Assembly (NCBI RefSeq): GCF_024502345.1
Contig: NZ_JALDNN010000001.1
Source of the DNA: Escherichia coli
GTDB lineage: Bacteria > Pseudomonadota > Gammaproteobacteria > Enterobacterales > Enterobacteriaceae
Direction: 5' to 3' (one strand)
DNA length: 64,000 nucleotides
Positions 6,902-25,946 of the stretch are shown here, one piece after another. The notes beneath the pieces were generated by a model. It was not told the origin of the DNA. It was given only the letters and a program-made list of their open reading frames with translations, and made no database searches. The position numbers were made by a program, and so were the translations under genes. Each line of letters begins with the position of its first letter. Positions within the stretch are counted from its first letter, which is position 1.

Positions 6902-6977
<76 letters not shown>

Positions 6978-7031
6978 GTTTAAAAGACATCGGCCTCAAG
7001 CGGATGTCTGGCTGAAAGGCCTGAAGAATTT

Positions 7032-7105
7032 GGCGCGTTAACAAAGCGGTTATGTAGCGGATTGCAAATCCGTCTAGTCCGGTTCGACTCCGGAACGCGC
7101 CTCCA
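7032..7105 (+). tRNA. cysT: tRNA-Cys (anticodon GCA)
   Basis: 74 nt ending CCA; anticodon loop gattGCAaatc. Confidence 0.93.
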
Positions 7106-7117
7106 CTTTCTTCCCGA

Positions 7118-7204
7118 GCCCGGATGGTGGAATCGGTAGACACAAGGGATTTAAAATCCCTCGGCGTTCGCGCTGTGTGGGTTCAAGTCCCACTCCGGGT
7201 ACCA
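7118..7204 (+). tRNA. leuZ: tRNA-Leu (anticodon UAA), long variable arm; 3' half is the integration site of the element
   Basis: 87 nt ending CCA; anticodon loop gatttTAAaatcc; T-stem carries a compensatory U-A pair relative to the displaced copy at 34590-34645. Confidence 0.9.
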
Positions 7205-7276
7205 TGGGAAACATCAGAATAATCAAAGCAATAAGCAGTGTCGTTAAACCACCTCCGGGTGGTTTTTTTGTGCCTG
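7149..7276 (+). repeat. attL: direct repeat covering the 3' 56 nt of tRNA-Leu plus terminator
   Basis: About 128 bp, roughly 95% identical to 34590-34719. Confidence 0.85.
7246..7269 (+). terminator. Rho-independent terminator after leuZ
   Basis: Hairpin accacctccgggtggt followed by T7. Confidence 0.7.
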
Positions 7277-7445
7277 AAATTCATGTCCTGTGCATATCCT
7301 GTGCTCACGGGGTGCGATGAGCTGCAATCTCCAGCCTGGCAATGACGAATCGAACGTGTCGCCTCCAGCATAGAGAACCAGGCCGCTTTGCCTGTTTTCC
7401 GGTACGCTTCCGGGAAGGGGGGCCTGCTGAGCAAGCTGTAATGCT

Positions 7446-8266: not shown

Positions 8267-9484
8267 ATGCAAAAATCCTTCCGATTCACCAATTCATCCA
8301 TCAAAGCCCTTCCGGCAAACACAGATACCCGATCTACAGAGCTTGAGGTATCAGATACCGAGGTCATAGGCCTCAAATGTCTCTCAGGTCGAACGGGTAA
8401 CAAACGTTTCCTCCTGCGCTACACATTCCACGGTACCAAAAAAAGTATCAGTATTGGCAGATTCCCTGAAATCGATGTGGGGACAGCCCGTCAGATAGCT
8501 CGCCGTCATAAGGAGGCGATTGCACTTGGAAATGACCCCAAGGCAGAGCGCGATAATTATCGTGCGATGCCAACGCTTAGTGAGTTTTTTCACCTGACCT
8601 ATGTTCCGTTCATCAAGCGCCATAAAAAGTCCTGGGATAAGGATGTTCAGCGTTTCACGCAATACATTGAACCTCGTCTGGGGAAGATACGTTACTGCGA
8701 TCTCAGGGCCAGAGAGATACAACAGGTGCTGTTTGACATGCTGGAGGGGCGTATTCACGGGCAGCAATATGCGCCGTCTACCTGTAACAGAGCCCTTGCT
8801 ATTCTGAAAACGATGGGGCGTTATGCGTTGCGACAGGATGTGCTGGAAAAGAATGAAGCCGATAAGATCCCTTTACTGAAAGAGAATAATCAGCGGACGC
8901 GCTTTTTTGATGCTGATGAGATCAGGCGCATTCTTGACGCTGCTACCCAATATCCCAACAAAGCTGCCGGGGGATTGATAGCCATGTTGTTGTTAACCGG
9001 TACACGCAAATCAGAAATGCTTAATGTCAGGCATGAACATATCGACCGGGCCAATCGTACTCTGTTCATTCCTTATACAAAAAATGGTCGCAGTCGGACG
9101 GTATATCTAAGCGATGCAGCATTATCGATTATTGATGCTATCCCACGAGTTGGCAGTAATCCGTATCTGTTCGCCATTAAGGATAATGGAAAACCGATAT
9201 CGGAACCCCGATGGGCATATGAAAAAATACTGGCACAGTGCGGTATAGACAAGAATGAAGTCTGTTTTCACACCACACGTCATTCTGTTGCCTCTTTACT
9301 GGTTTCGAGTGGTCAATTCAGCCTGTATGACGTTAAAGCACAACTGGCGCATGCCAGTATTCAAAGTACGGAGCGCTACGCGAAATTGACACCAGAGCGT
9401 ATGCGTCAGACCGGGCAGGGCGTAACTGACCTTCTTTTGAACACCGTTACTGCCGGTAACAATGATGATTTTAGCACCCCTTGA
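8267..9484 (+). CDS. Tyrosine recombinase / integrase (P4-like); alternative upstream ATGs at 8237 and 8255
   Basis: Catalytic signature TGTRKSE (R), HTTRHSVAS (HxxR), ERYAKL (Y); RBS gagga before ATG 8267; adjacent to tRNA att site. Confidence 0.85.
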   Translation: MQKSFRFTNSSIKALPANTDTRSTELEVSDTEVIGLKCLSGRTGNKRFLLRYTFHGTKKSISIGRFPEIDVGTARQIARRHKEAIALGNDPKAERDNYRAMPTLSEFFHLTYVPFIKRHKKSWDKDVQRFTQYIEPRLGKIRYCDLRAREIQQVLFDMLEGRIHGQQYAPSTCNRALAILKTMGRYALRQDVLEKNEADKIPLLKENNQRTRFFDADEIRRILDAATQYPNKAAGGLIAMLLLTGTRKSEMLNVRHEHIDRANRTLFIPYTKNGRSRTVYLSDAALSIIDAIPRVGSNPYLFAIKDNGKPISEPRWAYEKILAQCGIDKNEVCFHTTRHSVASLLVSSGQFSLYDVKAQLAHASIQSTERYAKLTPERMRQTGQGVTDLLLNTVTAGNNDDFSTP

Positions 9485-10847: not shown

Positions 10848-11282
10848 ATGCAAACCCAATATGCCTTAAAACAGGCAGGATTAACTCTGCCTGTTACTAA
10901 AGAATTTCAGCAGCATATTACTACTCTTCTGGCAAATCAGGTTTTACAAAAAATAACTGAGGCAGTGGTTATTAATTTCCGCGATCCGGACTACAGTGCA
11001 GAATCCGGGGGCTTTCATCCCGTTGAAATACGGTTTATCCGTAAGAATAATGAATGGTATTTTGATTATGTCACAGATTTTAGTTATATGGGGCGTGTCT
11101 ACCCTGAGCTGGAAAAAGAAATTGATTTTTGCTGGTCGGGGAATTATGTCTTCCATTATCTGATTGGGGATATTTCACTGGCAGCAGAGAGGAATGAACT
11201 CTGGTCTCTGTGGGAGCGTAATTTTATGGAGTATCTCTCTATGGGGATTTACCGGGTAACGGTAACTGTGGAAAGTTGTTGA
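10848..11282 (+). CDS. Hypothetical protein (element cargo)
   Basis: 144-aa ORF. Confidence 0.45.
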   Translation: MQTQYALKQAGLTLPVTKEFQQHITTLLANQVLQKITEAVVINFRDPDYSAESGGFHPVEIRFIRKNNEWYFDYVTDFSYMGRVYPELEKEIDFCWSGNYVFHYLIGDISLAAERNELWSLWERNFMEYLSMGIYRVTVTVESC

Positions 11283-11583
11283 CCCGTTATGAACAGGAAG
11301 AAAGCGGGCGGCTTTGTAATCTACAGCATGTGGTGTGCATCACAGCATGGAGATGATGTCTCTTTTTCCTGGCTGTTCGCATAAACAAGTGCAGACACGG
11401 GGGATCTCAGATCCCTCGTGATTTTTGCCCCCTATGGTGCATTCTTCTGTAGCAGGGTGATAACGGTTAATCCATTACCCCAACGACAGTATTACACCGG
11501 TAATAAATGTTCATGAATACAGTTAGTTATGTGGGTTTTGAGGTGGGCTATGTCATCGTTGACGATAACTGAAGGTTTTACAG

Positions 11584-11811
11584 ATGTATAAAACTCGCGG
11601 TGAAAGGATCGCAGAAAGGCTGTGCTGGATATTACTTCAACTGTATACCGGTAATACGGTATCGGTTAATGATATATGTCAGCGTTTCGCGGTCAGTCGC
11701 CGAACCGGACAGCGTGATTTGTTGAGAGTTGAAACTGTAACGGAAACTATTTCACCTGGAAGGGTAAGGCTGGCAAATTTGATAAGGGAACGAGTTAGAC
11801 GAAATTTTTAA
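11584..11811 (+). CDS. Small HTH protein resembling the N-terminus of YafY/WYL-type regulators
   Basis: 75 aa; ...NTVSVNDICQRFAVSRRTGQRDL... HTH, parallel to the N-terminus of the 12773-13675 product. Confidence 0.4.
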   Translation: MYKTRGERIAERLCWILLQLYTGNTVSVNDICQRFAVSRRTGQRDLLRVETVTETISPGRVRLANLIRERVRRNF

Positions 11812-11892
11812 TCGAATCCATATCAATTCTATAAAATATGAAACTTAACGGGAGTAAATATACACTCCCGTTATAATGCAACCTTTTTTTAA

Positions 11893-12711
11893 CTACTCAA
11901 ATGATATTAATTTAGGTGCGACAGTGTTTTTATGACATGTTAAATTCGCAAGATCAATAATATCATGAAACAATTTTATGTCGTCGTCAGTGAGCTCTAC
12001 GTCTGGATCAGCTAAATCGGCACAGGTAACATTTAACCAGTGTGTTAATGAATCAATCCTGTTTGAAGTAATATATTCAGTGTGACCAATATCCCACTTC
12101 CAGTTGATCACCCGAGCAGGTCTGAATCTCACCTCCCGAACCCCAATTGGCGTTACTGACTCTACGAGAGGGTATATCGTGTTAAGTACTTTATCATGTT
12201 CACTGTAGATATTTAAATGCCCCATTTTTGAACCGTAAGCCATTTTCATTATGTTCTCTGTATAACTTGTTATTGGGGTGGCTCCGGCCATAGAGATTGT
12301 TAAGAGAATATTATCATTTTTAATATAGGGTAATGTATTGTTTATTAATCGAGTCCCTAAAGAATGACCCATTATGATCACATTACGCTTTTCTTTAACG
12401 TATATCTCGTTTATTACGTGTGCTAATTTTTCTCTGTTATTAACTGCTGCTTTCGTTGCATTATACCAGGCCTGACGCGCTTTAAATGGAATGGAGATTG
12501 ATGACAATAAAGGAGATGTTCTCAGGGGGAAGAGAGTATATAACCCCCACTTGTTCGCTATGTCAGAACTTAATATGGATAGTAGATTTGCCGATTCCCA
12601 TTTATAGTATCTGACATCAAGGCCACACCCTGCTTTAATTCGGTTAAACCATGATATATCATTTTCGGTCAGAAACCCTGATACAACAAGAAGAACCGGG
12701 CATTTTTTCAT
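11893..12711 (-). CDS. Alpha/beta-hydrolase-fold protein (GxSxG nucleophile elbow)
   Basis: 272 aa; IIMGHSLGTR serine-hydrolase motif. Confidence 0.5.
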   Translation of the reverse strand: MKKCPVLLVVSGFLTENDISWFNRIKAGCGLDVRYYKWESANLLSILSSDIANKWGLYTLFPLRTSPLLSSISIPFKARQAWYNATKAAVNNREKLAHVINEIYVKEKRNVIIMGHSLGTRLINNTLPYIKNDNILLTISMAGATPITSYTENIMKMAYGSKMGHLNIYSEHDKVLNTIYPLVESVTPIGVREVRFRPARVINWKWDIGHTEYITSNRIDSLTHWLNVTCADLADPDVELTDDDIKLFHDIIDLANLTCHKNTVAPKLISFE

Positions 12712-12772
12712 GGTAACTCCATTTTTTAGCTTACAAAAATAGCACTCAATGAAAATTATATTATCCGTGTCA

Positions 12773-13675
12773 TTACGGGGCGTTACTTGGCTGGGTGTAA
12801 CGTTTCAGTGCGGATTGTATATCTTCAGCAAGTTGTTGACGGATTGAGGCCGGTTGTATTACTTCGACATCCGGTATCCAGTATTTCATTAAAGGCATTA
12901 TCTGATCTGTGTGTGTTACACGTGATATCACCAGTAAATCGCCAGACCGGGAAGTATGAATTATTTCCTGTCCTGGCAATAGATGACGGTGGGTAAACCA
13001 CGGAGCAACATGTGCGGAAACTGAAATAAGAACTTCGATAAGGTCTTCGCTATACCAGATACCATCTGTCTTTTCTATTTTTTCATTAATTTCGGGGATT
13101 ATCCTGAAAGAGATATTACTCATGCAAACGTCTTTGACAGATGAGATAACAAAGCTTTTTAATGTACTGTCATGGGCGGCAGCGAGATACCACAATCCGT
13201 TGTCATTAACCAGCCTGTATGGCTCAACAGCCCGAAACTCTTTATCTTTGTAATTAAAATTTACTTTCTTCTGTGACAGGATGGCATCGGATAATACATT
13301 CAGAATTGACATGAATGATCCGCAGTTTTCGTATGGACGTTGTTTTATCAGAAACGGGTTGTTTTTCGTGTTACCTAACAAAATACTCAGTAGTCTGTCA
13401 TCCCAGCGAGGGAACAGCCCTTCAATACCCAGGATGCGCGTGAAATGACGTAAATCAGCATTGCTGCGTTGACCGAGAACACCGTCAGACAGGCGATAGC
13501 GACCATTTTGTCGAATCAGATTAAGATAGGACAGGCGCTGAGTAAGATCACGACGGATAGTTTTTTCGCAAACGTTAAATTCCTCAGATAACTCCCGGAC
13601 GGCTAGTGACTCACCATTGTTCAGGCGAGTTAATATCAATCCGAGTCGATATCCAAGTTTATCGTGCTTACCCAT
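12773..13675 (-). CDS. HTH + WYL-domain-type transcriptional regulator (YafY-like)
   Basis: 300 aa; N-terminal DeoR-like HTH ([21 protein letters not shown]), central region consistent with a WYL domain. Confidence 0.5.
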
Positions 13676-13724
13676 TCGTTTATCCGGTTAATGCCAGCGA
13701 AGAGGATATTTTCAGCAAAGTAAC

Positions 13725-13835
13725 GGACAGGATGAGTCCACTTTTACTGTGACGGAGAAAAAAATTAACTCATTAATTATCAATATATTAAAACATTGCT
13801 GGAATCATCGAATAACATGTGGACTCATCCTGTCC
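13725..13835. promoter_or_regulatory. Perfect 17-bp inverted repeat pair (candidate operator) upstream of the WYL/HTH regulator gene
   Basis: ggacaggatgagtccac (13725-13741) and gtggactcatcctgtcc (13819-13835), 77-bp AT-rich spacer. Confidence 0.5.
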
Positions 13836-14054
13836 ATGTGTATTTTTACGTTCAGGGTGATAATTATTATCCTGACCTGTACATGACATGTTTTTGCTGC
13901 ATATTTGACCATGCACTTTTGCCATCAAGTCGGAGAGGCAGGGGGGAACGTAAGATCCGAAGGTTAGAGAGGTTATCAGCAATTACAATGATGATTAATA
14001 TTTTCATAATATCGGAGAACATCATATTAGTTGAAATAACATAAAGGTGGTTCT

Positions 14055-14381
14055 ATGTATTTACATATCAGAAAGTATCAACTCGTAAATGCGAGATGGC
14101 GTGATGTCATTGATCTGACAGATTATGAAGAAACAATCAGGCAGGTTGTCGGTACATTATTTGGAAATGATTTTATTGAGGTCAGCGTTGAAACAAATTG
14201 TTTTACTCTGACAGTAAACAGTACAAGCAGTAAAATACCACACGGCATACTGGTGAATATGGGGAAAAGGCTGGCGGCTAATCTCCAGAGTATCACCTGT
14301 CATGCCATGCGGATCTATCATGTAAATGGCCATCCTGACGCGCGGCAGTTATTTCACTGTTTTGATGCCGATTGCCTGTGA
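14055..14381 (+). CDS. Hypothetical protein (element cargo)
   Basis: 108-aa ORF with RBS aaaggtgg upstream. Confidence 0.4.
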   Translation: MYLHIRKYQLVNARWRDVIDLTDYEETIRQVVGTLFGNDFIEVSVETNCFTLTVNSTSSKIPHGILVNMGKRLAANLQSITCHAMRIYHVNGHPDARQLFHCFDADCL

Positions 14382-14385
14382 TTAA

Positions 14386-14415
14386 GCCCCCAACTTCTGT
14401 TAAAGGAGTTGGGGG
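14386..14415. terminator. Bidirectional hairpin between convergent genes
   Basis: cccccaact...agttggggg perfect stem. Confidence 0.5.
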
Positions 14416-14429
14416 AGATTTAACGGTTA

Positions 14430-17030
14430 TCAGACTGGAAGACAGAATGTCGGATATTTACGGGCTATGATATCCATCAGTGACTTCATTCGCGGTGTTA
14501 CAGAACTAAATTTCATTTGGGGTATTTTTGCTCTTACCGCATTTTTTACATCAGTCACCGTTACTGAATAGCCTTCTGACGTCAGCCATTCAGCAACCTC
14601 TTTACAGGAATAACTTTTTTTATCTTTCAGCATCAGCCCCCATTGGCACTGAGTCAGCGCCCGGAGAAATAGTCTGACTAAAATATCATCACTACGTTTG
14701 CTTCCGACTTTTAGTTTCATATCAGAAAACACCGTCCGGCAATAGAGAAAATCACACCAGTCATCCCAGTCAGCCAGGGTCTTCAGTGTATGCGTTTGCC
14801 GCCAGTCGTCGAAAAGGGAGCGCTGCTGCAGAGCCTCTTCCATATTATCCCATGGGCGGGAAAACATCAGTAAATGCCCTTCATTCATGGCGGGCTGTAC
14901 GGGCTGGCGTTTGAAATCGAATTCCAGATTAAGACGGATATCCTGTTCCCGGGATACCAGATCGCTTTCCGACAGCCACATCTCACGCGTTGATATCAAC
15001 GTACTTCGGGATAAAGTCTGACCGGGTAAACGATTAAGGTAAAGATCTACCATATAGTCGTTATAGTCACTGCGTGGAATATCGGCAGGAGGTTTGACGC
15101 CAGCCCTGGCATGAACAACAGGTTTTCCCTGAATAGCTCTATAGGTTAACTGCCCCCGGGTTTTCATGGCGATAAGCTGGCTGACTTCATGCTTACATGT
15201 CAACATTGATGAACCCGGATCAACAATATCGCACAGCGACTGGAAGCGGGAAGACAGTGGACCGCTCATGTTTATCTTGTTAAGTGGGCAATTTGTCAAA
15301 AAGCCATCGGTTGTGACGCTGACAACCGATGAATCAGAAGGCAAAGCATTCATGAGTTCCCCGGCAACGGCGCGGATAAATCCCGTTACATGCGCAGCAA
15401 AGAATGGCTGAGTAACCGATGATGGTGGGAGGGATCTGTTTAATCCACGGGCAGTATCAAAGGCGGTTTTGGCGCGAAGGCCCTGAGCAAGTTTGCCATA
15501 AAGCGAGTTGCCAATTTCTTTCCAGAATTTCTCCTCCAGAGAACCTTTAATATGGCGATTACGGTTCTCACGGACCTGTTGAACAAAGGGAAGAAACACC
15601 GATGTTGATTCGCTGTTATGTGGGGAGGTGTCACAGATCCAGGGGACGATGATCCCATTATGGATCGTCATCTCTGCCCCGAGCGACAGAGCAAGTTCGA
15701 TTTCAGGTGCCGTTGCCCATGATTCGCCACTTAATGGAAAGAATAACCCATATTGATCGGTCCGAACCGGCAGGCTGGGATAGGGAACTGATTCCGGGAA
15801 CCGAAATGTGACAAGCGCAAATCCCATTACATGCCCACAGTAATCGTCCGGATTTTTACTGAGGCGGATGTTCCCGTAATCGGGTGTGAGGATATCTAAT
15901 AGCCCGGTGGTATACGCTCCAGCCAGATCGTAGTCATACCAGTGATCAGACGGTGTAACCCCCATCATAAAACACTCATTGCGTCCGCCGTGGTAACAGT
16001 TGATCGGGAACGTTTCAAACAACTCTCTTGAAGGAACACTGGCGGGGTTTTTAATCGTCCGGAATGCCTGTTTCTCCGTGAGCCAGAGTTCACGGGTTTT
16101 AATGTGTGTCCCAAGGCAGACTTCAGGAGACATATTGTTTTCTTTAAGTGTTTTGGTGAACCGTGAAACTGCCATCGCCCCGATGGTGGCGGGGACACGA
16201 TCAATCATCAGCTCCCGGGCGCAAAAATTGCGAACCTGTAAAGCATAACGAACCGCAATCTCGGCATCCCGCAGAGCATAGGCTTCAAACCCTGCTCTGT
16301 CGCCCAGAAGATATTCACGCATATTGGTTATGGAATAAGGTGCAGGAATGGTGAGTTTGGGAAGACCCAGTAATTCACCACATTCAGCCAGACCCATACC
16401 CCCGGGAGTGATAAGCAGTGTATCGATGAAAGCTACGTTACTGCAACGCGGAGGGGAAGTTCGTTTGTCAAACATTATCTGTTCAGTCTTTACGCGACGT
16501 TCCTGCTGTTCATCAAAATCGATACCGTAACGATTTTTGAAGCTGCTGACAGTACCGCGTATTCCTTTCAGAAGAATTTTGTAGTCTGACCAGAAATTGG
16601 CAAAGGAGGCGATATCCGCACGAATGAAATGCGCATATATATTAATAATACCGGGCCATTTTGTAATCACACCCGTTTCAAGAAGCGGTGTAATCGTTTG
16701 ACAGAGAAATTCCTTAAAAGACAGCCGGGATTTTTTCTGTGAGTCAGGTGGATAGATAATGTTCGATATACCTGTATTATCGGGTAAGATAACATAACTC
16801 TGATATGACAGAATATCATTCTGTCGTGTTTCAGGGTTGAAAACATATTCGGTATCAAAACCGATATGGAGTGTCAGGTCACTTGAAATAACAGATACTT
16901 TTTTTGATGCAGGTGGTATCACAGGATAATCATCAAGCGTTTTAGGTCTTTTACGATTGAGCGCTGGCTCTGAAGTCACGGACTGATACCCCGAGGCGGC
17001 AGCGAGGATGTCCTGCAAATTATTGCTCAT
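14430..17030 (-). CDS. Family-B DNA polymerase with 3'-5' exonuclease domain (piPolB-like); alternative start at 17093
   Basis: Exo I FDTE, Exo III YALRD, motif A DYDLAGAYTT, motif B KEIGNSLYGK, motif C VTTDGF, downstream KTRG, all in canonical order; RBS ggag before ATG 17030. Confidence 0.85.
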   Translation of the reverse strand: MSNNLQDILAAASGYQSVTSEPALNRKRPKTLDDYPVIPPASKKVSVISSDLTLHIGFDTEYVFNPETRQNDILSYQSYVILPDNTGISNIIYPPDSQKKSRLSFKEFLCQTITPLLETGVITKWPGIINIYAHFIRADIASFANFWSDYKILLKGIRGTVSSFKNRYGIDFDEQQERRVKTEQIMFDKRTSPPRCSNVAFIDTLLITPGGMGLAECGELLGLPKLTIPAPYSITNMREYLLGDRAGFEAYALRDAEIAVRYALQVRNFCARELMIDRVPATIGAMAVSRFTKTLKENNMSPEVCLGTHIKTRELWLTEKQAFRTIKNPASVPSRELFETFPINCYHGGRNECFMMGVTPSDHWYDYDLAGAYTTGLLDILTPDYGNIRLSKNPDDYCGHVMGFALVTFRFPESVPYPSLPVRTDQYGLFFPLSGESWATAPEIELALSLGAEMTIHNGIIVPWICDTSPHNSESTSVFLPFVQQVRENRNRHIKGSLEEKFWKEIGNSLYGKLAQGLRAKTAFDTARGLNRSLPPSSVTQPFFAAHVTGFIRAVAGELMNALPSDSSVVSVTTDGFLTNCPLNKINMSGPLSSRFQSLCDIVDPGSSMLTCKHEVSQLIAMKTRGQLTYRAIQGKPVVHARAGVKPPADIPRSDYNDYMVDLYLNRLPGQTLSRSTLISTREMWLSESDLVSREQDIRLNLEFDFKRQPVQPAMNEGHLLMFSRPWDNMEEALQQRSLFDDWRQTHTLKTLADWDDWCDFLYCRTVFSDMKLKVGSKRSDDILVRLFLRALTQCQWGLMLKDKKSYSCKEVAEWLTSEGYSVTVTDVKNAVRAKIPQMKFSSVTPRMKSLMDIIARKYPTFCLPV

Positions 17031-17076
17031 AGTTAACTCCGAAAAAATGCCGGGAGCTGTGTCCCGGCATAAAGAA

Positions 17077-17715
17077 TCAGGATTTAATAACATTTACTAC
17101 AGATTTGAAAATATCGGTTTTGTGTGATTCATCATCTACATGGATAAAGGAAACGAGTTTCCTGCCTGCTTTAATCAGGATACCGCGTTGCGTCTTTTCC
17201 ACAGACGGGGTAACGTGTGCAGATAACAGACAATGTTCATGTAAATGAAGAAACTTTTTTGAGGCGTAGCCGCCATGTAATCGGGCTTGAATGTCAAGAT
17301 ACATATCATCAAGAGAACCGGGTTCTCCTGATTCACTCAATACCGGATAACCCTTCTTATCAAAGAGGTTAAGGATAGATTTACTATCATGTTCGAACAG
17401 GGTAACACCGTAAATGTATTTCATTCGAAAGGTGAGGGAATCGGTGGTGTAGACCTCCTCCTGACGATTGAAATTTTTGAGACGCCTGGCTAATTCATTA
17501 AAAACAGCACGAGCAGTAGCCGTGTCCTGCAGGGTGTAGGTATAAAGTACGAAGCCATCTGTGCCGATGAGCTTTACTAAGTTGTCCATAATCGTGATAG
17601 CGAGAACTAATGCAAAGGACAGATATTTTTCATCGTTGTCTACAGCTGTGTTTGCTGCTTCAGGAAGAATGTTCAGTGCATTATTAGCATTATTTGCTGT
17701 GTTCTTAGTAACCAT
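17077..17715 (-). CDS. Hypothetical protein between the excisionase and PolB genes
   Basis: 212-aa ORF overlapping the xis stop by 11 nt; no recognisable motif. Confidence 0.5.
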   Translation of the reverse strand: MVTKNTANNANNALNILPEAANTAVDNDEKYLSFALVLAITIMDNLVKLIGTDGFVLYTYTLQDTATARAVFNELARRLKNFNRQEEVYTTDSLTFRMKYIYGVTLFEHDSKSILNLFDKKGYPVLSESGEPGSLDDMYLDIQARLHGGYASKKFLHLHEHCLLSAHVTPSVEKTQRGILIKAGRKLVSFIHVDDESHKTDIFKSVVNVIKS

Positions 17716-17905
17716 TTATATCACCTTTAAGTTTGTTTTGACGATGTGCATTTTCCCACTCAACAATATCATCAAGAGAGAATCGTATAGCCCGCCCAAT
17801 TCTGATGAAGGGCGGGAGTTTTCCTGGGTTGCGCGATATATCTGACGCAACCGTGGATGCGGAAAGATTAAATCTTTCTGCAAACTGCTTAATGGTTAAA
17901 TACAT
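17705..17905 (-). CDS. AlpA/Xis-family excisionase-like DNA-binding protein
   Basis: 66 aa; LTIKQFAERFNLSASTV ... winged-helix pattern typical of AlpA/Xis. Confidence 0.65.
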   Translation of the reverse strand: MYLTIKQFAERFNLSASTVASDISRNPGKLPPFIRIGRAIRFSLDDIVEWENAHRQNKLKGDINGY

Positions 17906-18055
17906 AAACCTCCGGTTTTAGAGAAGAAGAAACCACGCGGATTTAATATCAATCCACATTCTTTGATGACTTAATGCAGGGCCCTGCAGAAGCATGCAAT
18001 GACAATACCGTCCTTAAACGAGTGTTGCATCAATCACGAATCACAGATCATAGGT

Positions 18056-19186
18056 TCATTTTTTCGTGTCATAACTTTCTATGACCTGAGAAACCACTGC
18101 GTGCGATGTCGCTGCATTGTGAAAAGCGTAGCGACGGGTCGCCGTGAGTGAATGGTGATTTAGCAGATGGGAAGCGATTGCAATATCCCCGGTCGCCTGT
18201 AGTACCCGGGTGGCAAAGGTACGGCGCAGGTCATGCATCCGCAGGTTATCAATGTTGGCATCCCGACAAATACGGGCAAAGGTTGCACGCGGATATGCCA
18301 GAGGGCGGGCATTGTCGGTTAGTTGTGGAAAAATGTAAGTTTTGCTGAGCATCAGGTCTTGCTGGCACTGGACAACTGCAATGGCTGGAGGTGCAAGTGG
18401 GCAGGTGAAAGGGTGTCCGGACTTTGTATCAGGCAGTATGAGTTGATGCATATCCGGGTGCCAGTACTCCCATTTCAGGGTACATACCTCACCAATACGC
18501 ATCCCCGTATAAAGAGCAAGCAATATAGAATCAGCTGCCGGTGTTTGCAGCGCTGTTGCCGCGTCAATAAAGCGCGGGATTTCTGTCGCTGATAGTGTGC
18601 GATAGCGAATGTTATTTTCTTTCAGATAGCGGACATGTGACATCGGGGAATGTGTGATCCATCCAGCACGTACTGCCAGAGAGCATATTTTGGACAATAT
18701 TGCGAGGATACGGTTTACTGTTGACGGACGTAATTTTTCCCGTAAGCCAGCAGCATATTGTTCTAGTTCCCCTGCCGTGATGTCGCGAAGTTGCCGCTTG
18801 CCCCAGAACGGGCGAACGTAGAGGTTGAGTTTTGACAACTCTGACTGAGGACTCTTTTTATACAACTGCAAATCCGGTAGCCACAGGTCATTGATGGCCT
18901 GTTCCACAGTGAATCGACGGGACTGAACCGCAAGACGATTTTTATCAGCAAGCAGTTTCATCACATGCTGACGGGCATCCTCAACGCAGAGCTGAGGGAA
19001 CTGACCCAGGGTTTCATATATACGCTGATTGTTTATAGTGGCACGAAAGGCCAGCGTGATCCGATTGGGATACACCAGAGCACGCAGGTTTTGGCAGTGA
19101 ATATCACGGTATTCCTGACAACCCGTGAGGGGATGTGGAAGTTGGTGAAGTGATTTGTTGCTGAAACGCAGATCCAGAATAGGCAT
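18056..19186 (-). CDS. Second tyrosine recombinase (XerC/D-like integrase)
   Basis: 376 aa; RIGEV (R), HDLRRTFAT (HxxR), TRRYAFH (Y). Confidence 0.8.
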   Translation of the reverse strand: MPILDLRFSNKSLHQLPHPLTGCQEYRDIHCQNLRALVYPNRITLAFRATINNQRIYETLGQFPQLCVEDARQHVMKLLADKNRLAVQSRRFTVEQAINDLWLPDLQLYKKSPQSELSKLNLYVRPFWGKRQLRDITAGELEQYAAGLREKLRPSTVNRILAILSKICSLAVRAGWITHSPMSHVRYLKENNIRYRTLSATEIPRFIDAATALQTPAADSILLALYTGMRIGEVCTLKWEYWHPDMHQLILPDTKSGHPFTCPLAPPAIAVVQCQQDLMLSKTYIFPQLTDNARPLAYPRATFARICRDANIDNLRMHDLRRTFATRVLQATGDIAIASHLLNHHSLTATRRYAFHNAATSHAVVSQVIESYDTKK

Positions 19187-19329
19187 CGTATTTCTCCTGT
19201 AAATGACACTGGAAAAATACGATGTGAGGTTATAGTCTGCCAGTTACAGCTTTCACAGTTCATCAGGTGAAAAAACGCAGATTCGGATATAATGGCAACA
19301 CAATTCCATGTCGCCATTATATTAAGAAA

Positions 19330-20460
19330 CTACAGTTTCATGATCTTGTTCGCTATTTTTTCGAAGTAAACCTCATTCTTAAGAAGAGTGATATTGTTTG
19401 TTTGAACACCCAGACCACTGGAGGTTGACTGGAAGTTGAGTGAACCACTTATCACTGTGGACTTTCCTGATAAAAATGAAATCAACTCCTTGGAAGATGG
19501 TGCCCACTCAGGGTTTAAGAGTAATGCAATATAGATATATGTCTTACGAAGCAATTGTTCTATATCTTTTTTATGCCCTGTAGTGTTTTGCTTACCTTTA
19601 ATGCAAATAGATTTGATTATGAACTCATCAGGGCTGGTTAAAGGCGTTTTAAACTCACTCAGTGATCCATCGTTATGAATGACTTCATAAGGCAGCATAG
19701 ATAAAATGATCAATGCAATCATTTTAGGATGATAAAGGTAGTTATCACGAATGATTTTTCCTGCCTTCATTGTATTGAGCGTTGTTTGAATAAATACAAA
19801 AAGATATTCAGAGCAAAAGTAACAAAACACAAGCCAGGATAGGTCAATGGATGGAATGTTAATATCCTTAGGTAGTTTGTTTAGCCAGTATTCAGACTTC
19901 AAAAAGGTCCTGATTTCAACAGTATATTCATGCATTTTTGCGCTGAAATCAAGCATTGCTACTTGACCTGATTGTTCCGTAACTGTGTGGTCTATAAATG
20001 TTAGTGTATTGCACATTTTATCCAGCGTGTTTTGAAAACAAGAAAGGAGTTCGGCATTATTATTACCATTAACCGCAGATGAAAGTTCAGTTTTAATAAA
20101 TGCATCCAGTAGCATACAGATTTCTTTCGGAATGACATTTTTACGGGATTGCTGTGAATAGAAATGTACTGCCAGTAAATTAAAGGCAGTGCACTCCTTT
20201 TTTAACCATTGTTCGAGCACTGGGACGTGCTGAAAAAAATTGATATGCTTAGCAGTAGATGCTGATGGAGATAGTACATGAAGAATATCTACAGCAGGCT
20301 TCATTTGCAATATTTGATCGGATTCGGTAGTCGTCATTAGTTCCAGTAATTGCTGTTCAGAAAATAGTTTAGACAGGTGATCAATGTCTTTTTGGTATTG
20401 ATTAAGTTTTGTTAAATTCCCCGGTATACGGGTTACATTGTTTTTCATTTTCTCGAACAT
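19330..20460 (-). CDS. Hypothetical protein, AT-rich, no recognisable domain
   Basis: 376-aa ORF in a low-GC block; Lys/Asn/Ile-rich. Confidence 0.5.
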   Translation of the reverse strand: MFEKMKNNVTRIPGNLTKLNQYQKDIDHLSKLFSEQQLLELMTTTESDQILQMKPAVDILHVLSPSASTAKHINFFQHVPVLEQWLKKECTAFNLLAVHFYSQQSRKNVIPKEICMLLDAFIKTELSSAVNGNNNAELLSCFQNTLDKMCNTLTFIDHTVTEQSGQVAMLDFSAKMHEYTVEIRTFLKSEYWLNKLPKDINIPSIDLSWLVFCYFCSEYLFVFIQTTLNTMKAGKIIRDNYLYHPKMIALIILSMLPYEVIHNDGSLSEFKTPLTSPDEFIIKSICIKGKQNTTGHKKDIEQLLRKTYIYIALLLNPEWAPSSKELISFLSGKSTVISGSLNFQSTSSGLGVQTNNITLLKNEVYFEKIANKIMKL

Positions 20461-20966
20461 AATTTTATCCTCGTTTGAATTATTACACTGATTTAAAAAG
20501 TAGCATGTCGTGTTAGCGAGGTAATCCTAAAACGTGAATGGCAGCAGGGGCAAGCTTGAATCTGCGTAAGGATATGGCTTGAATTTAATGGTGTAATCAG
20601 TGAGTTAGAGGCTTATAGCCATTTAAATACAATAAGTTATGATAATATATGGCGGGTGTAAATCGGTTAGTTTTTATGGTTAAAATATGAGCATTGTGAG
20701 ATTTGAGATATGATGGTTTTTAAATTACATACAAGTTACCCCTGATGATCAGTATTAATACCAGAATGATACATGCGAGCAGCACCCAATCCTGTACTAT
20801 TTATGATGGCTATACAAGGCTGAAACTTTGAGTCGTATGTTGCCAGGAGGATTAATGTCCACAAGGCCCAGATAGAATGATTTCTCAGATATTAAAGTTG
20901 AAACTTATTAACTATGTGAGAGGCTGATATTTATTCAGTCTCTCATTTGTTTTTATCGTTTTAAAG

Positions 20967-22202
20967 TTAAAAGGAAATAAATAATGCCTTCCGCCGATGA
21001 ATCAGTGTACTGATTTCTCGAAAATCAGCCTCAATACTACCAACATCACCAAAGACTTCACCACTAATCTCTCTTCGATTTTTCATGAAATTGGTGCTTA
21101 ATAAGCTTTCTTTTTTTAGTGTCACTAATTTTGGTTTTATATCGTTATAGAAATGCTTACGGCTTACCCTGATGCTATGAATCGAGTAGTAAACTGTTTT
21201 ATACATCAAAAATATAAGTAACTGGCCGAGAAGATATTCTTTTTCAATGTATTTATATTGAGAGGATTTTTCGCGTTTCGCCAGGTAGAAAACATGAGGT
21301 GCGATGATGGTGGGGATGAAATCCAGTGCTGGAGAGGTTTTGGTTTTTTCTGTTTCTCTTCCGGATTGAAGATGTTGAAGTACAGAGTATACAATGCTTA
21401 AAATTATGGCGTTACTTATATTATTAATTGCAGTTGGGTAAATATGCAGATTGCTTATCAATTCTGAAAGGCAAAGTAAAACACCAGTGATGTTGGGTTT
21501 TCTGCCGGAGATTGTGGTGCTGTTGAAAATGTGACGATTCTTACGACTTATATTGACAAGTTTATGAGTGCAGAACTCTATATGTTCGACGATTTTATCT
21601 TGACTATTTTTAATGTATTTTGAAATGTTAGTGATCCGGCCATTCAACGTTAGTTCATCAAGCAATATATCATTTTTAATATTGCGAATTTCATCGCAAT
21701 GTTCACATTGAGAAACTATCTCATGTAATACATAACTCGACGTATTGCGGGGTGACGCTGATATGTAATCTAAAATAGAAGGCTCGATTTTGATTTTTTG
21801 TTTGTATTTTTTAATGCACTGTTTGATTGTTTTTTGTAGAGTATTTGAGATGTGTTTTTTATATTCTTTTAGAAAATCTTGCTCTAAAAAGAGTGAGGAG
21901 AAGATCAACTGCTGGCGAGATAATTTAATCTCAGGCTTGATCAATTTAATCCGAAAAACTCTTCCCTCCAACTCATAGCTGAACATGGAAGATAAGTCAT
22001 AGTGGGGTGATAAATGTTCGAGTAACGACATTCGTGTATTCATTAGCCGCTTGAATTTATGGTCAGCATACATAAGTGTTTTTTTTATTTGCTCATCATA
22101 AAGTGGGCCGATAGCGCAGTTGGCAATACTCATTCTATCCGGAGACCTCCAGTCAGCAGGGGAATCACATTGACGGTCATCATTACTATCAAAGGGCATC
22201 AA
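20967..22202 (-). CDS. Hypothetical protein, AT-rich, no recognisable domain
   Basis: 411-aa ORF in a low-GC block; no Walker or nuclease motifs seen. Confidence 0.5.
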   Translation of the reverse strand: MMPFDSNDDRQCDSPADWRSPDRMSIANCAIGPLYDEQIKKTLMYADHKFKRLMNTRMSLLEHLSPHYDLSSMFSYELEGRVFRIKLIKPEIKLSRQQLIFSSLFLEQDFLKEYKKHISNTLQKTIKQCIKKYKQKIKIEPSILDYISASPRNTSSYVLHEIVSQCEHCDEIRNIKNDILLDELTLNGRITNISKYIKNSQDKIVEHIEFCTHKLVNISRKNRHIFNSTTISGRKPNITGVLLCLSELISNLHIYPTAINNISNAIILSIVYSVLQHLQSGRETEKTKTSPALDFIPTIIAPHVFYLAKREKSSQYKYIEKEYLLGQLLIFLMYKTVYYSIHSIRVSRKHFYNDIKPKLVTLKKESLLSTNFMKNRREISGEVFGDVGSIEADFREISTLIHRRKALFISF

Positions 22203-22505
22203 CGTTGCCGATTATGGATCATGTCAGCTCCACACACCAGAACGGGTGATATATGGATCATCATTACCCCAACGGCAGTTTTACACCATGGCTAATATGG
22301 ATGCTATCTTACTAAGATAATTGGTTTTTAGCGAGTGACGAGCCCGGTTGTGTCAGTCTGTCTCATGTCGATATTACGGGGATGATGCAAACCTGAATGC
22401 TGCGATATTGGCGTGTCAGGGGAGGCATCTTACGGTATCATTTACCGCAATTTTTAAGATGCAAAGCCCTGCATCGCTAGCTTTTTCTTCAGACCAGGAT
22501 GATTC

Positions 22506-24029
22506 ATGAACGACAAAATCAGTCAGGACACGATCAACAAAGCCCTGTGGGCCGCGTGTGATACGTTCCGTGGCACCATCAGTGCTGATACCTATAAAGA
22601 CTTTATCCTTACCATGCTATTCCTTAAGTACATTTCGGATGTCTGGCAGGATCACTACGACGAATATAAAGTGCAATATGGTGATGAGCCGGAACTGATT
22701 GAAGCGATGATGGCGAACGAGCGCTTCGTGTTGCCGAAAAGCGCCAGTTTCTATGCGTTGTACGAGCGACGTCATGAGCCGGGCAACGGTGAGCGTATCG
22801 ATCAGGCGCTGCATGCGATTGAAGAAGCCAACGGCACCAAACTGAAAGATGCCGGGAAAAGTGTCTTCCAGGATATTTCGTTTAACACTGACCGTCTGGG
22901 CGAAGAAAAACAGAAGAACACCATCCTGCGTCAGTTGCTGGAAGACTTTGCCGGTGAAGATCTTAACCTGAAGCCAAGCCGTGTCGGTACGCTGGACGTT
23001 ATCGGTAATGCTTACGAATATCTGATCAAAAACTTTGCTGCCAGCGGTGGGCAGAAAGCCGGGGAATTCTATACCCCACCGGAAGTTTCGGATCTCATCG
23101 CTGAACTGCTTGATCCTCAACCCGGTGATACAATCTGCGACCCGGCCTGTGGTTCCGGTTCGTTGCTAATGAAGTGCGGGCGTAAAATTGTCTCAGGACA
23201 TGATAGCCGCAACTATGCGTTGTTCGGTCAGGAAGCGATTGGCTCCACGTGGTCGCTGGCGAAAATGAACATGTTCCTGCACGGCGAAGATAACCACAAA
23301 ATCGAGTGGGGCGATACCATTCGTAACCCGAAGTTGTTGGATAAAAACGGCGACCTGATGCTGTTTGATATCGTGACCGCAAACCCACCGTTCAGCCTGG
23401 ATAAGTGGGGCCATGACGAGGCCGAGAATGATAAGTTTGGGCGTTTCCGTCGCGGTGTACCGCCGAAGACTAAAGGGGATTACGCCTTTATCTCGCATAT
23501 GATCGAAACCCTGAAACCGGGAACGGGTCGTATGGGCGTAGTGGTGCCGCACGGTGTGCTGTTCCGTGGCTCCAGCGAAGGCAAAATTCGTCAGAAGCTG
23601 ATTGATGAAAACCTACTCGATGCGGTGATTGGCCTGCCTGAAAAACTGTTCTACGGTACGGGTATTCCTGCTGCAATTCTGATTTTTAAAAAGCAGAAAG
23701 TGGATGACAAGGTGCTGTTTATCGACGCCAGCCGTGAATTTAAGGCAGGTAAAAACCAGAACCAGCTCAGCGCAGAAAACATCGAGAAAATCGTCAAGAC
23801 CTACCGTGATGGCGATAGCGTCGAGAAATATGCCTACCTTGCCAGCCTGAAGGAGATTCAGGACAACGATTACAACCTCAATATTCCGCGCTATGTCGAT
23901 ACCTTTGAAGAAGAAGAAGATATCGATTTACTTGCCGTTCGTGCTGAGCGGGAGGAATTGAAAGCGGAACTGGCGAAATTGGAAACGCAGATGGCGGGTT
24001 ATCTGGAGGAGCTGGGTTATGGTGCCTAA
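22506..24029 (+). CDS. hsdM: Type I restriction-modification N6-adenine DNA methyltransferase subunit
   Basis: 507 aa; SAM-binding DPACGSGSLL and catalytic NPPF (VTANPPFSL). Confidence 0.9.
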   Translation: MNDKISQDTINKALWAACDTFRGTISADTYKDFILTMLFLKYISDVWQDHYDEYKVQYGDEPELIEAMMANERFVLPKSASFYALYERRHEPGNGERIDQALHAIEEANGTKLKDAGKSVFQDISFNTDRLGEEKQKNTILRQLLEDFAGEDLNLKPSRVGTLDVIGNAYEYLIKNFAASGGQKAGEFYTPPEVSDLIAELLDPQPGDTICDPACGSGSLLMKCGRKIVSGHDSRNYALFGQEAIGSTWSLAKMNMFLHGEDNHKIEWGDTIRNPKLLDKNGDLMLFDIVTANPPFSLDKWGHDEAENDKFGRFRRGVPPKTKGDYAFISHMIETLKPGTGRMGVVVPHGVLFRGSSEGKIRQKLIDENLLDAVIGLPEKLFYGTGIPAAILIFKKQKVDDKVLFIDASREFKAGKNQNQLSAENIEKIVKTYRDGDSVEKYAYLASLKEIQDNDYNLNIPRYVDTFEEEEDIDLLAVRAEREELKAELAKLETQMAGYLEELGYGA

Positions 24030-25266
24030 GGGGTGGAAACGAGTACCGATTAAGGATGTGTGCGAGTCTATAATCGATTGCGTAAATAAAACAGCTCCAG
24101 TTGTTGATTATGAAACTCCCTTTAAGATGATTCGTACCACGAATGTACGTAATGGAAGGGTTAATACTGAAGACGTCAGATATGTGACTGAAGACACTTA
24201 CCTGCAATGGGTTCGACGCGGAAAACCGCAAGTAGGTGATATCATCTTTACACGTGAAGCACCTGTAGGAGAAGCAGGTGTCCTGCAAGATGCTGAAGGT
24301 ATTTTCCTCGGGCAAAGAACGATGATGTATCGAGCTGATACCTGCCTTTCAGATAACTATTTCTTGTTCTACTCGTTATCAAGTCCCTTCTGCCAGAAAC
24401 AAATTGAAGATTTTAGCAATGGCGGTACTGTAGCTCATATGAGAGTTCCAGATTGCGGTGAGATATTGATCAATCTACCGCCTTTCCTCGAACAAAAGAA
24501 AATCGCCCAAATCCTGTCAACCTGGGATAAGGCGATTTCGGTGACGGAAAAGCTTCTCACCAACAGCCAGCAGCAGAAAAAAGCCCTGATGCAGCAATTG
24601 CTTACTGGGAAGAAACGCTTGCTGGATGAGAATGGGACAAGGTTTTCTGAAACTTGGAAATTATATGCCTTATCGAAATTATTTCAGAGAGTTACGACTA
24701 AAAACAATGGAAAAAGCAACAATGTTGTAACCATTTCTGGACAACATGGTTTGATTAAACAGGAAGACTTTTTCAAGAAAACAGTCGCATCAGATACCCT
24801 TGATGGTTATTTCTTATTAAAAAAAGGGCAGTTTGCTTACAATAAAAGTTACTCTAATGGTTATCCGATGGGTGCAATAAAAAGATTAAATCGATATCCA
24901 GAGGGAGTAGTAACAACTCTGTATATATGTTTTGAACTTACTACACCCAAAAAATCATGTGGTGACTATTGGGAGCATTATTTTGAGTCAGGGCTTTTGA
25001 ATAACAGTTTGTCTCAAATTGCTCATGAAGGTGGACGGGCTCATGGCTTGCTAAATGTAAAACCTTCGGACTTCTTTTCATTAAAAGTTGCGGTTCCTGG
25101 CTTTGAAGAGCAACAAAAAATCGCATTAGTTCTGTCCGCTGCCGACACCGAAATCTCCACACTGGAGAAAAAACTCGCCTGCCTGAAAGACGAGAAGAAA
25201 GCCTTGATGCAGCAACTGCTGACCGGGAAACGTCGGGTGAAAGTGGATGAGGCGGTTGCCGTATGA
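24019..25266 (+). CDS. hsdS: Type I restriction-modification specificity subunit
   Basis: 415 aa; two target-recognition halves each followed by the conserved repeat KKALMQQLLTGK(K/R)R; overlaps hsdM stop. Confidence 0.88.
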   Translation: MVPKGWKRVPIKDVCESIIDCVNKTAPVVDYETPFKMIRTTNVRNGRVNTEDVRYVTEDTYLQWVRRGKPQVGDIIFTREAPVGEAGVLQDAEGIFLGQRTMMYRADTCLSDNYFLFYSLSSPFCQKQIEDFSNGGTVAHMRVPDCGEILINLPPFLEQKKIAQILSTWDKAISVTEKLLTNSQQQKKALMQQLLTGKKRLLDENGTRFSETWKLYALSKLFQRVTTKNNGKSNNVVTISGQHGLIKQEDFFKKTVASDTLDGYFLLKKGQFAYNKSYSNGYPMGAIKRLNRYPEGVVTTLYICFELTTPKKSCGDYWEHYFESGLLNNSLSQIAHEGGRAHGLLNVKPSDFFSLKVAVPGFEEQQKIALVLSAADTEISTLEKKLACLKDEKKALMQQLLTGKRRVKVDEAVAV

Positions 25267-25946
25267 AACTGACGAAAAGCGGTCCACTGACTGACCGGGA
25301 AATCGACTGGCTGGAAGAAATATTAATGAAGTATGGAATGGATGATTCTGTACTCTGTTTCTCTGAGCTGGATGGATTGCTGACGGCGATTTTATCAGGT
25401 CCAAATATGGTTTCACCCAATATCTGGCTGAGTGCTATTTGGGGAGGAGGCGATTATCATCCGAAATGGTCATCTGAGAGAGAGATGGAGCGTTTTGTCA
25501 GTCTGTGTTTTCAGCATATGAACGATATCGCTGGTTGCCTTTATGACGCCCCTGAACTGTTTGAGCCGATTTTCAATGAGCGTGAGGTAAAGGGGGAAAA
25601 ATATACCATTGTGGAAGAGTGGTGTTTTGGTTATATGAAAGGAAAGTCACTGGATGACTGGTCTGGTCTTCCCGGTGAGTTACGGCCTTCTCTGGAAGTG
25701 ATCGCTCTTCATGGCGTGGAGAAGAATTTTCCTGTACTTGAGAAAATGACCGGAGAGCAGTTTGAGAAAAGTATTTCCCTTATTCAGCCTGCTGCACTGG
25801 CACTTTATCAGTACTGGTTGTCAGTGAGAATGTCAGAGGCATCATCCCGGCCTGTTCCAGTGAAGGGGGCAGAAAACATGCCCGGGCGAAATGACCCGTG
25901 TCCGTGTGGCAGCGGTAAAAAATTTAAGAAGTGCTGTCTGCATTGA
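25263..25946 (+). CDS. YecA-like (UPF0149) protein with C-terminal SEC-C metal-binding motif, embedded between hsdS and hsdR
   Basis: 227 aa; C-terminus [20 protein letters not shown]; alignable along its length with chromosomal YecA at 34841-35506. Confidence 0.75.
   Translation: MKLTKSGPLTDREIDWLEEILMKYGMDDSVLCFSELDGLLTAILSGPNMVSPNIWLSAIWGGGDYHPKWSSEREMERFVSLCFQHMNDIAGCLYDAPELFEPIFNEREVKGEKYTIVEEWCFGYMKGKSLDDWSGLPGELRPSLEVIALHGVEKNFPVLEKMTGEQFEKSISLIQPAALALYQYWLSVRMSEASSRPVPVKGAENMPGRNDPCPCGSGKKFKKCCLH

Follow-up and report, generated by a model that had tools for sequence, protein, structure and literature searches.

The int2-xis-orf212 arm of an Escherichia coli pipolin and its junction with the primer-independent polymerase gene

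The stretch of Escherichia coli DNA analysed here ("the window": 64,000 nucleotides of contig NZ_JALDNN010000001.1, assembly GCF_024502345.1) is a part of the chromosome carrying a 27.5-kb pipolin inserted in the leuZ tRNA-Leu gene. To our knowledge, pipolins are the only bacterial elements with a polymerase that initiates DNA synthesis without a primer. We consider the genes located upstream of the polymerase gene piPolB and transcribed in the same direction: int2, coding for a tyrosine integrase, xis, coding for a small helix-turn-helix (HTH) protein, and the orphan gene orf212. The interval is the int2-xis arm of the conserved pipolin core, a module already described in the literature. What is added here is a fold model of the orphan protein, evidence that its gene keeps a strict synteny while diverging at an accelerated rate, a terminator-type hairpin conserved in front of piPolB and three conserved non-coding motifs. 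The main text of three pipolin papers (PMC11551731, PMC7385651, PMC5695915) does not describe the fold and fast divergence of the gene between xis and piPolB, the hairpin or the non-coding motifs.

The pipolin and the genes of its int2-xis arm

The element is recognised as a pipolin because the module match, the tRNA-flanked repeats, the piPolB residues and the DUF2787 and WYL neighbours fit the published core. E. coli chromosomes match the 5-kb module with 100% identity; of 5426 complete E. coli genomes, 303 contain it, in every case in the chromosome and never in a plasmid. At the left end of the island lie tRNA Gly-Cys-Leu genes (6902-7204), including tRNA-Leu(taa) at 7118-7204. The left direct repeat resembling an attachment (att) site (7149-7279, plus strand) spans the 3' half of this tRNA-Leu gene plus its terminator. 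The right att-like repeat (34590-34722, plus strand) is 95% identical to the left one; both are about 131 nt long and they are spaced by 27.4 kb. A DUF2787 family protein is annotated by RefSeq in the identical region of E. coli PSJ-23, and the 300-aa regulator encoded at 12773-13675 shares 69% identity with a product of L004, one of the loci used for comparison, that has a Pfam WYL match.

The core of gammaproteobacterial pipolins was reported to include piPolB, IntSXT, IntP2-excisionase, DUF2787, WYL and two orphan proteins (PMC11551731), and the excisionase following IntP2 in the vicinity of piPolB is a published feature of this core (PMC11551731, PMC7385651). The window shares with it the integration into tRNA-Leu with att-like repeats, the piPolB hallmark, the att-proximal integrase, the second integrase with an excisionase-class gene near piPolB, and the DUF2787, WYL and orphan genes. 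The agreement is gene for gene, with no difference in architecture. The arrangement noted in the first-pass annotation of this DNA thus exemplifies a module that was already known, and our results leave the classification of the element as it was.

int2 (18056-19186, minus strand) codes for a 376-aa integrase, the putative IntP2 of the pipolin literature. Its product is recognised both by Pfam (Phage_integrase, PF00589, 3.8e-21, residues 197-357; Phage_int_M, 8.5e-6) and by PHROG (PHROG 1 integrase, 5e-52). The catalytic set is complete (R230, K255, H318, R321, H344 and Y353); judging by the sequence, int2 is a catalytically complete phage-type tyrosine integrase. About 110 residues precede the core-binding domain, with a very weak match to the arm domain (E 0.27). 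The best matching integrases of the phage collection are 25-29% identical, about half of the matches coming from records with an organism name starting with Mannheimia, Ralstonia or Burkholderia. In divergent pipolins the identity of int2 is 64-79%.

Two different tyrosine recombinases had been noted in the element, and this is borne out by their mutual identity of just 27%. The other one is the integrase of the left end (8267-9484, alternative start 8237, plus strand; PHROG 1 integrase, 1e-53; "site-specific integrase" in RefSeq). The first-pass annotation called it P4-like; it is the putative IntSXT of the pipolin literature. The ORF (open reading frame) coordinates given earlier for both integrase genes, xis and orf212 were exact.

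xis (17705-17905, minus strand) is indeed a small HTH gene of the excisionase class located downstream of the second recombinase on the same strand, and its position beside int2 is conserved across lineages. HTH_17 (1e-8) is the sole significant match of the 66-aa product among the seven Pfam matches listed. PHROG 66 ("excisionase and transcriptional regulator") matches at 4e-7, and TIGR01764 ("excise") scores 24.1 bits, under its curated cut-off of 28.8. In the earlier name "AlpA-like Xis" the excisionase-class HTH part is right and AlpA only loosely so: Phage_AlpA is absent among the same seven matches, and one RefSeq record names a xis orthologue "AlpA family transcriptional regulator". In Citrobacter the protein is 100% identical and all nucleotide changes are synonymous, giving a ratio of nonsynonymous to synonymous substitution rates (dN/dS) of 0.

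orf212 (17077-17715, minus strand), a pipolin-specific orphan of 212 aa, was correctly placed just upstream of the polymerase gene and co-directional with it. The gene overlaps xis by 11 nt (17705-17715), and a Shine-Dalgarno-like AGGTGA is located 6-7 nt upstream of its ATG. The overlap, from which translational coupling had been proposed, is thus real in the window, but its length is not conserved: other lineages have a 17-nt overlap, plain adjacency or a 31-nt gap.

piPolB (14430-17030, minus strand; start and length according to RefSeq) codes for a primer-independent family-B DNA polymerase of 866 aa. The reading frame is open up to 17093 (14430-17093), and the RefSeq start at 17030, which is also the left limit of the interval given in the first-pass annotation, has GGAG 7 nt upstream and is aligned with the start codons of divergent homologues. 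With this start, 46 nt separate orf212 from piPolB and the two do not overlap. The hallmark residues are present: D59/E61, D366/D368, TTDG (573-576), K613-H614 and KTRG (623-626), that is, the ExoI, PolA and PolC motifs and the K613-H614 pair, with KTRG replacing KxY. The same residue numbers were named for the characterised E. coli piPolB (PMC5695915). All these residues are invariant in an alignment that includes piPolBs of Staphylococcus, Fusobacterium and alphaproteobacteria, and the protein also matches PHROG DNA polymerase families. A protein search with piPolB returned solely near-identical E. coli proteins among the matches listed, and a scan of viral contigs yielded one locus, E. coli-like.

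Different strains repeatedly show insertions of IS3, IS1 and IS903B (IS, insertion sequence) within or close to the WYL-piPolB-int2 region (e.g., L001, E. coli PSJ-23, 18535-19763), in agreement with a published remark on insertion sequences near IntP2.

Conservation, divergence and predicted fold of orf212

The product of orf212 has no match in Pfam, NCBIfam, PHROG, PADLOC or PDB sequences, whether a single sequence or a profile is used, so the earlier statement that it has no recognisable sequence motif stands. The orf212 profile found 19 hits in 1.84 billion representative proteins; those of full length make up four clusters at 50% identity. When the orf212 alignment was used in a word-indexed search, 28 full-length members were obtained, down to 28% identity and all labelled hypothetical. 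Those with a species name all belong to Enterobacterales (Escherichia, Citrobacter, Enterobacter, Buttiauxella, Intestinirhabdus, Lelliottia, Leclercia, Hafnia and Klebsiella aerogenes).

The gene order is strict. In every locus with enough flanking sequence (L002, L004, L005, L006-L012, L014 and L020) a gene for an unknown protein of 375-390 aa is followed by the integrase, the HTH gene, the orf212 homologue and piPolB. Absence of orf212 from related elements, which the first-pass annotation had envisaged, was not observed, the gene being found at this place in each of the enterobacterial pipolin lineages read.

In sequence, orf212 has drifted much further than the genes around it. In the divergent elements of L004 and L009-L012 its product is 30% identical to the window copy, compared to 36-41% for the upstream orphan, 57% for xis, 70% for WYL, 71% for piPolB and 78% for int2. 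In Citrobacter the corresponding values are 89-91% for orf212, 87-92% for the upstream orphan, 97-98% for WYL, 97-99% for piPolB, 97-99.6% for int2 and 100% for xis. dN/dS against Citrobacter is 0.28-0.37 for orf212 and 0.13-0.24 for its neighbours, leaving xis aside. By these measures, orf212 evolves at roughly double the rate of the adjacent genes. Among E. coli genomes, 37 have orf212 at 90-95% nucleotide identity, and piPolB never falls below 95% except in eight genomes with a divergent element type. orf212 DNA was detected in 280 genomes versus 303 for piPolB. Frameshifted alleles coding for 179 aa (P0009, P0011 and P0012) also occur in public assemblies; in the clusters seen they number about 64 member sequences, compared to about 1180 for the intact form. 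Taken together, the comparisons indicate that orf212 is subject to purifying selection with relaxed constraint and that the element can be carried without it.

One Citrobacter sp. copy (L006) is mosaic: a patch opposite window positions ~16860-18060 differs at about 5% of its nucleotides, and the flanks are 99-100% identical. This patch takes in the 3' end of int2, the int2-xis spacer, xis (where every change is synonymous), orf212 and about 170 nt at the start of piPolB, which suggests a recombinational exchange of this segment between pipolins.

A metagenome scan provided a view beyond Enterobacterales: it returned 80 loci with piPolB at 31-70% identity, and an orf212 sequence homologue was found only in the one at 70%. 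In the class with 42-48% piPolB identity, the slot between xis and piPolB holds an ORF of 113-193 aa (L021/24, L022, L023/25 and L031; by position also L027, L029 and L036). Among them are L021:4075-4572, L022:2749-3204, L023:3062-3403, L027:4266-4847 and L036:4354-4725. These slot ORFs make up several families with no significant similarity to orf212 (best hhalign probability 17.5%). In more distant pipolins, either a small ORF or piPolB itself comes next after the integrase gene, and small plasmid pipolins have no slot gene. orf212 is therefore not a universal partner of piPolB, which is consistent with the autonomy of this polymerase in vitro (PMC5695915). In an alphaproteobacterial plasmid from Pseudosulfitobacter (L019, 715-7383) the integrase gene and the start of piPolB share 4 nt; this piPolB is split by an IS66 insertion. 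The adjacency of integrase and polymerase genes would therefore be older than the insertion of xis and orf212.

AlphaFold supplied with five near-identical orf212 sequences gave a predicted local distance difference test score (pLDDT) of 36, an unusable model; the 28-sequence alignment was required. With that alignment, the AlphaFold 2 model reached a pLDDT of 91 and a predicted template modelling score of 0.84, with four of the five models at 90 or above. It consists of a unit of five strands and a long helix repeated in tandem three times (residues 23-82, 88-149 and 155-211). The repeat is visible in the secondary structure of the model alone, since hhalign probabilities for sequence similarity among the three modules stay below 1%.

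Foldseek comparison with AFDB50 returned, outside the family, uncharacterised proteins of 153-178 aa with E-values of 3e-5 to 3e-3, three of which belong to Vibrio and Photobacterium (A0A2T5ERY3, A0A151KS02 and A0A066RMF1), and after them upwards of 30 LytTR proteins (E 4e-3 to 0.1). In the viral library a phage "DNA binding regulator" matched at 1.8e-3. The structure search suggested by the first-pass annotation thus produced a confident fold with a weak resemblance to LytTR-like and PH-like domains at marginal scores, and the Foldseek searches gave no full-length structural analogue. Pfam LytTR matches none of the 28 family members. Compared to LytTR (AgrA/ComE type) or PH-like domains, orf212 has no sequence-profile match and has three modules, each with a long C-terminal helix; it is acidic overall and has no receiver or other partner domain. 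The isoelectric point (pI) in the family is mostly 4.9-6.7, and module 3 alone is basic (pI 9.6). We conclude that orf212 is probably a non-enzymatic binding protein of unclassified architecture, possibly capable of DNA binding.

The hairpin in front of piPolB and conserved non-coding motifs

The top site of the terminator scan lies between orf212 and piPolB. It is an intrinsic-terminator-like hairpin, AUGCCGGGA-CACAGC-UCCCGGCAU followed by UUUUUU (17041-17070, minus strand). This is the strongest such site in the 8.6 kb between 14000 and 22600: its 9-bp stem (17070-17047) contains 6 G-C pairs and is followed, after the 6-nt loop is closed, by TTTTTT, which ends one base ahead of the GGAG preceding the piPolB ATG. 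The folding energy is -19.7 kcal/mol (z -5.2), and none of 200 shuffles folds equally well. A single dominant GC-rich hairpin of 7-12 bp occupies this spacer in all ten lineages compared, in unrelated sequences. Its z-scores range from -1.2 to -5.2, and in seven out of ten lineages no more than 3 of 200 shuffles fold as well. Within one group the stem shows compensatory changes (GGUGCC/GGCACC versus GGUGUC/GACACC). A U-run follows the hairpin in the window type, L021/24, L022, L023/25 and partly in L036.

A sigma-70 promoter scan returned 14 sites versus 21.9 in shuffles, none convincingly placed, with no minus-strand promoter-like site between 19176 and 16603. Since the space after the hairpin has neither room for a promoter nor a promoter-like site, piPolB must be reached by transcription passing the hairpin. 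Conservation of a terminator-type hairpin therefore makes simple co-transcription of orf212 and the polymerase gene doubtful and favours a conditional one. Promoters and terminators separating these genes had been named earlier as evidence against a common string. The outcome is mixed: a terminator-like hairpin does precede piPolB and conserved motifs flank int2, but the scan showed no promoter-like site near the hairpin. Rfam has no family at the gathering threshold in the region 11000-23000; the sole hit, ceN54 (E 0.4, 22.4 bits versus 60), is due to chance.

The first of the conserved non-coding motifs, ATGAnCTGTGA, has exactly two matches in the window, both on the minus strand, compared to 0.16 expected. 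One copy, ATGATCTGTGA (18041-18051), is located 5 nt past the int2 stop codon; the other, ATGAACTGTGA (19253-19263), is 67 nt upstream of the int2 ATG. The pair is kept in all enterobacterial lineages checked and is absent from more distant pipolins. The upstream copy is placed and oriented alike in L002, L004, L005, L007-L010 and L012. Both copies are also present in L020, where the distances are measured from the ORF-finder start and not from a confirmed int start. The TGTGA core was considered as a possible CRP site and this was rejected, only one half-site being a fit.

The second motif is a perfect GC-rich 14-bp palindrome, TGCAGGGCCCTGCA (17975-17988), unique in the window and located between int2 and xis. 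It is kept as CTGCAGGGCCCGGCAG in L004 and L014, has one or two changes in L009/L010 and is missing in L002 and L005. This palindrome might serve as an operator or mark where the int2 transcript ends.

The third motif is 26 nt long and is found upstream of two genes. Copy B, CATTACCCCAACGGCAGTTTTACACC (22262-22287, plus strand), lies 60 nt upstream of the start of orphan411, and copy A (11473-11498, plus strand) lies 86 nt upstream of a 75-aa HTH gene (11584-11811). The copies are direct repeats 10,789 nt apart which bracket the whole piPolB/int2/WYL block. In the divergent pipolins L004, L007, L008 and L014, with piPolB identity as low as 70%, the motif is found at the same two positions with no more than 3 mismatches.

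Attachment sites of a nested 10.8-kb element were considered as an explanation of the 26-nt repeats. This was rejected: the relevant deletion, in E. coli strain I4 (L015, NZ_CP195978.1), spares both copies. Strain I4 has a leuZ pipolin-like island lacking the 10.5-kb polymerase/int2 block. The deletion extends from ~11617 to ~22135 and is joined at a near-match of 4 out of 5 nt (GCAGA/GGAGA), which fuses the first 33 nt of the 75-aa HTH gene to the 5' part of orphan411; DUF2787 is then followed almost directly by hsdM. As the deletion lies outside the motif, it provides no evidence of recombination there, and a regulatory role of the motif is more likely.

Two orphan genes precede int2 in the same direction. 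orphan376 (19330-20460, minus strand), an ORF directly upstream of int2, has homologues of 29-41% identity in the same position (L002, L004 and L009-L012), a divergence rate like that of orf212. orphan411 (20967-22202, minus strand) is the first gene of the leftward co-directional string in E. coli-type elements. It is absent from the L004/L009-type ones, where the 26-nt motif directly precedes the orphan376 homologue. Neither orphan matched the family libraries scanned (NCBIfam, PHROG and PADLOC). Directly past the orphan376 stop codon there is an AT-rich imperfect inverted repeat, TATAATGGCGACA / TGTTGCCATTATA (~19270-19323, minus strand), with a T-run about 11 nt later; it resembles a terminator that would separate orphan376 from int2.

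Remnants of pipolins were also encountered. The leuZ locus of an E. coli strain of sequence type (ST) 648 (L016, NZ_CP008697.1) retains a truncated gene resembling uracil-DNA glycosylase, IS3 and type I restriction-modification cargo. A synthetic junction query is matched by 529 complete E. coli genomes, most of them listed via the hsdM half; 303 carry piPolB, which leaves about 226 further ones. Cargo-only relics may be nearly as common as intact pipolins, the ST648 locus being the one inspected.

Possible functions of the module

We regard the following explanation, taken as a whole, as somewhat probable; its anatomy was read from the loci and its functional steps are what we infer from that anatomy. 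Together, int2 and xis would serve as an integration/excision pair, alongside the att-proximal integrase or as an alternative to it. xis and orf212 would be expressed from one transcript. To reach piPolB, RNA polymerase would have to read through the hairpin, so that synthesis of the DNA polymerase would be withheld unless termination is overcome. The orf212 product, presumably not an enzyme of recombination or replication, may act as a binding adaptor or regulator (of DNA, RNA or protein), coupling excision to expression or use of the polymerase.

Several observations weigh against this explanation. The polymerase needs no accessory factor to replicate DNA in vitro (PMC5695915), and neither excision nor replication of E. 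coli pipolins was detectable in sequenced strains under standard growth (PMC7385651). Frameshifted alleles circulate, and orf212 is therefore dispensable for maintenance; more distant pipolins have no sequence homologue of it. The acidic character of the family would be unusual for a DNA binder of the LytTR type. Finally, the U-run after the hairpin is missing in L002, L004, L005, L009-L012 and L020. With this run present in about half of the lineages, termination may not be the common role of the hairpin.

The order of genes has parallels. In P4-like satellites, Gram-negative phage-inducible chromosomal islands and the int-xis-rep module of SGI1, integrase, a small HTH excisionase or AlpA gene and replication genes likewise follow each other in one direction. 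The pipolin differs in that its replicase is a primer-independent PolB instead of a primase-helicase or Rep, and in having an unrelated three-module orphan and a terminator hairpin ahead of the replicase gene. We know of no helper-phage link for pipolins. A possible parallel for the passage through the hairpin is AlpA of Pseudomonas aeruginosa, a similarly small AlpA-class HTH protein encoded upstream of genes located behind an intrinsic terminator; it lets RNA polymerase bypass this terminator (PMC7969949, PMC9371919). The xis product matches HTH_17, and Phage_AlpA is not among its matches; we treat the likeness only as a lead. In the type I restriction-modification cargo, a YecA/YgfB-family gene (25263-25946) separates hsdS from hsdR, as in other pipolins. 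YgfB antagonises AlpA in P. aeruginosa (PMC9998450); a link between this gene and the AlpA-class xis is pure speculation.

The module might instead have no working link to the polymerase, being a leftover of another integrative element fused to an ancestral pipolin, with orf212 as its cargo or regulatory gene and the hairpin as the end of its operon. Pipolin authors themselves propose a secondary role for IntP2, possibly acquired later from another element (PMC11551731). A terminator-type hairpin parts orf212 from piPolB, which needs no accessory factor in vitro; orf212 is missing from distant and plasmid pipolins; and the ~5% divergent patch of the otherwise 99-100% identical Citrobacter copy covers the end of int2, xis, orf212 and the start of piPolB. 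We nevertheless think this rather unlikely: in all loci with enough flank orf212 was seen solely beside piPolB, and its whole family amounts to the 19 hits mentioned above among 1.84 billion proteins. Moreover, an upstream co-directional integrase recurs at 31-48% polymerase identity and in the alphaproteobacterial plasmid, and there is no space for a separate piPolB promoter past the hairpin. A different division of labour, raised in the first-pass annotation, would make int2 a Xer-like resolvase of dimers of the replicated circle. The presence of two recombinases only 27% identical to each other could be read in this way. The best, sub-threshold NCBIfam matches of int2 are XerC and XerD, and pipolin authors suggest that small serine resolvases process replication intermediates in other pipolins. 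However, these matches score 60.9 bits (XerC, cut-off 335) and 55.4 bits (XerD, cut-off 330), and the ~110-aa N-terminal extension, the phage-integrase middle domain and the adjacent gene of directionality-factor type correspond to an integration/excision make-up. Resolvases have no need of an excisionase, and an excisionase-class gene follows int2 in all lineages; a res- or dif-like site was not identified. Dimer resolution by int2 appears very unlikely, and int2 and xis are better seen as an integration/excision pair because a phage-type integrase adjoins an excisionase-class gene.

Two further alternatives concern orf212. As a LytTR-like sequence-specific regulator, it would control int2, xis and the polymerase gene via the conserved motifs. 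These motifs sit exactly in the intergenic regions expected to hold promoters, LytTR proteins bind direct repeats, and the 26-nt motif contains the direct half-sites TTACCCC and TTACACC. The marginal structural E-values, the lack of Pfam LytTR matches throughout the family and the overall acidity speak against it, as does the near-invariance of the motifs while orf212 falls to 30% identity, since a binder and its site are expected to change together. The element also encodes WYL and the 75-aa HTH protein as further candidate regulators, and we find this role of orf212 unlikely. That orf212 is a sliding-clamp-like or other processivity or loading factor for piPolB is highly improbable. Such a role would suit its place directly upstream of the polymerase gene, the repeated ~65-aa beta-plus-helix modules, the clamp-like acidic pI and faint Pfam Hus1 matches in 9 of the 28 members (best 8e-3). 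However, in the member inspected the Hus1 alignment joins residues 142-198 to just 57 model positions (1-57) at E 0.18, no clamp is among the listed structure matches, and piPolB is processive by itself in vitro (PMC5695915). The clamp-like reading was accordingly rejected.

Returning to the explanation in which int2 and xis excise the element and orf212 couples excision to the polymerase, one extension of it can be put forward as a speculative one that we would not expect to hold. In this extension, orf212 and the sequence-unrelated slot genes of 113-193 aa would constitute one structural class of one to three beta-sheet-plus-helix modules and, together with an AlpA-class Xis and the leader hairpin, would form an excision-licensed switch of piPolB. 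If true, pipolins would possess a specific device coupling site-specific recombination to primer-independent replication.

Overall, the int2-xis-orf212 module can be considered a natural place to seek the control of pipolin excision and replication. The hairpin before the polymerase gene, a pipolin-restricted and fast-evolving orphan with a confident but unclassified fold and the motifs bracketing int2 make the annotation of this module testable.

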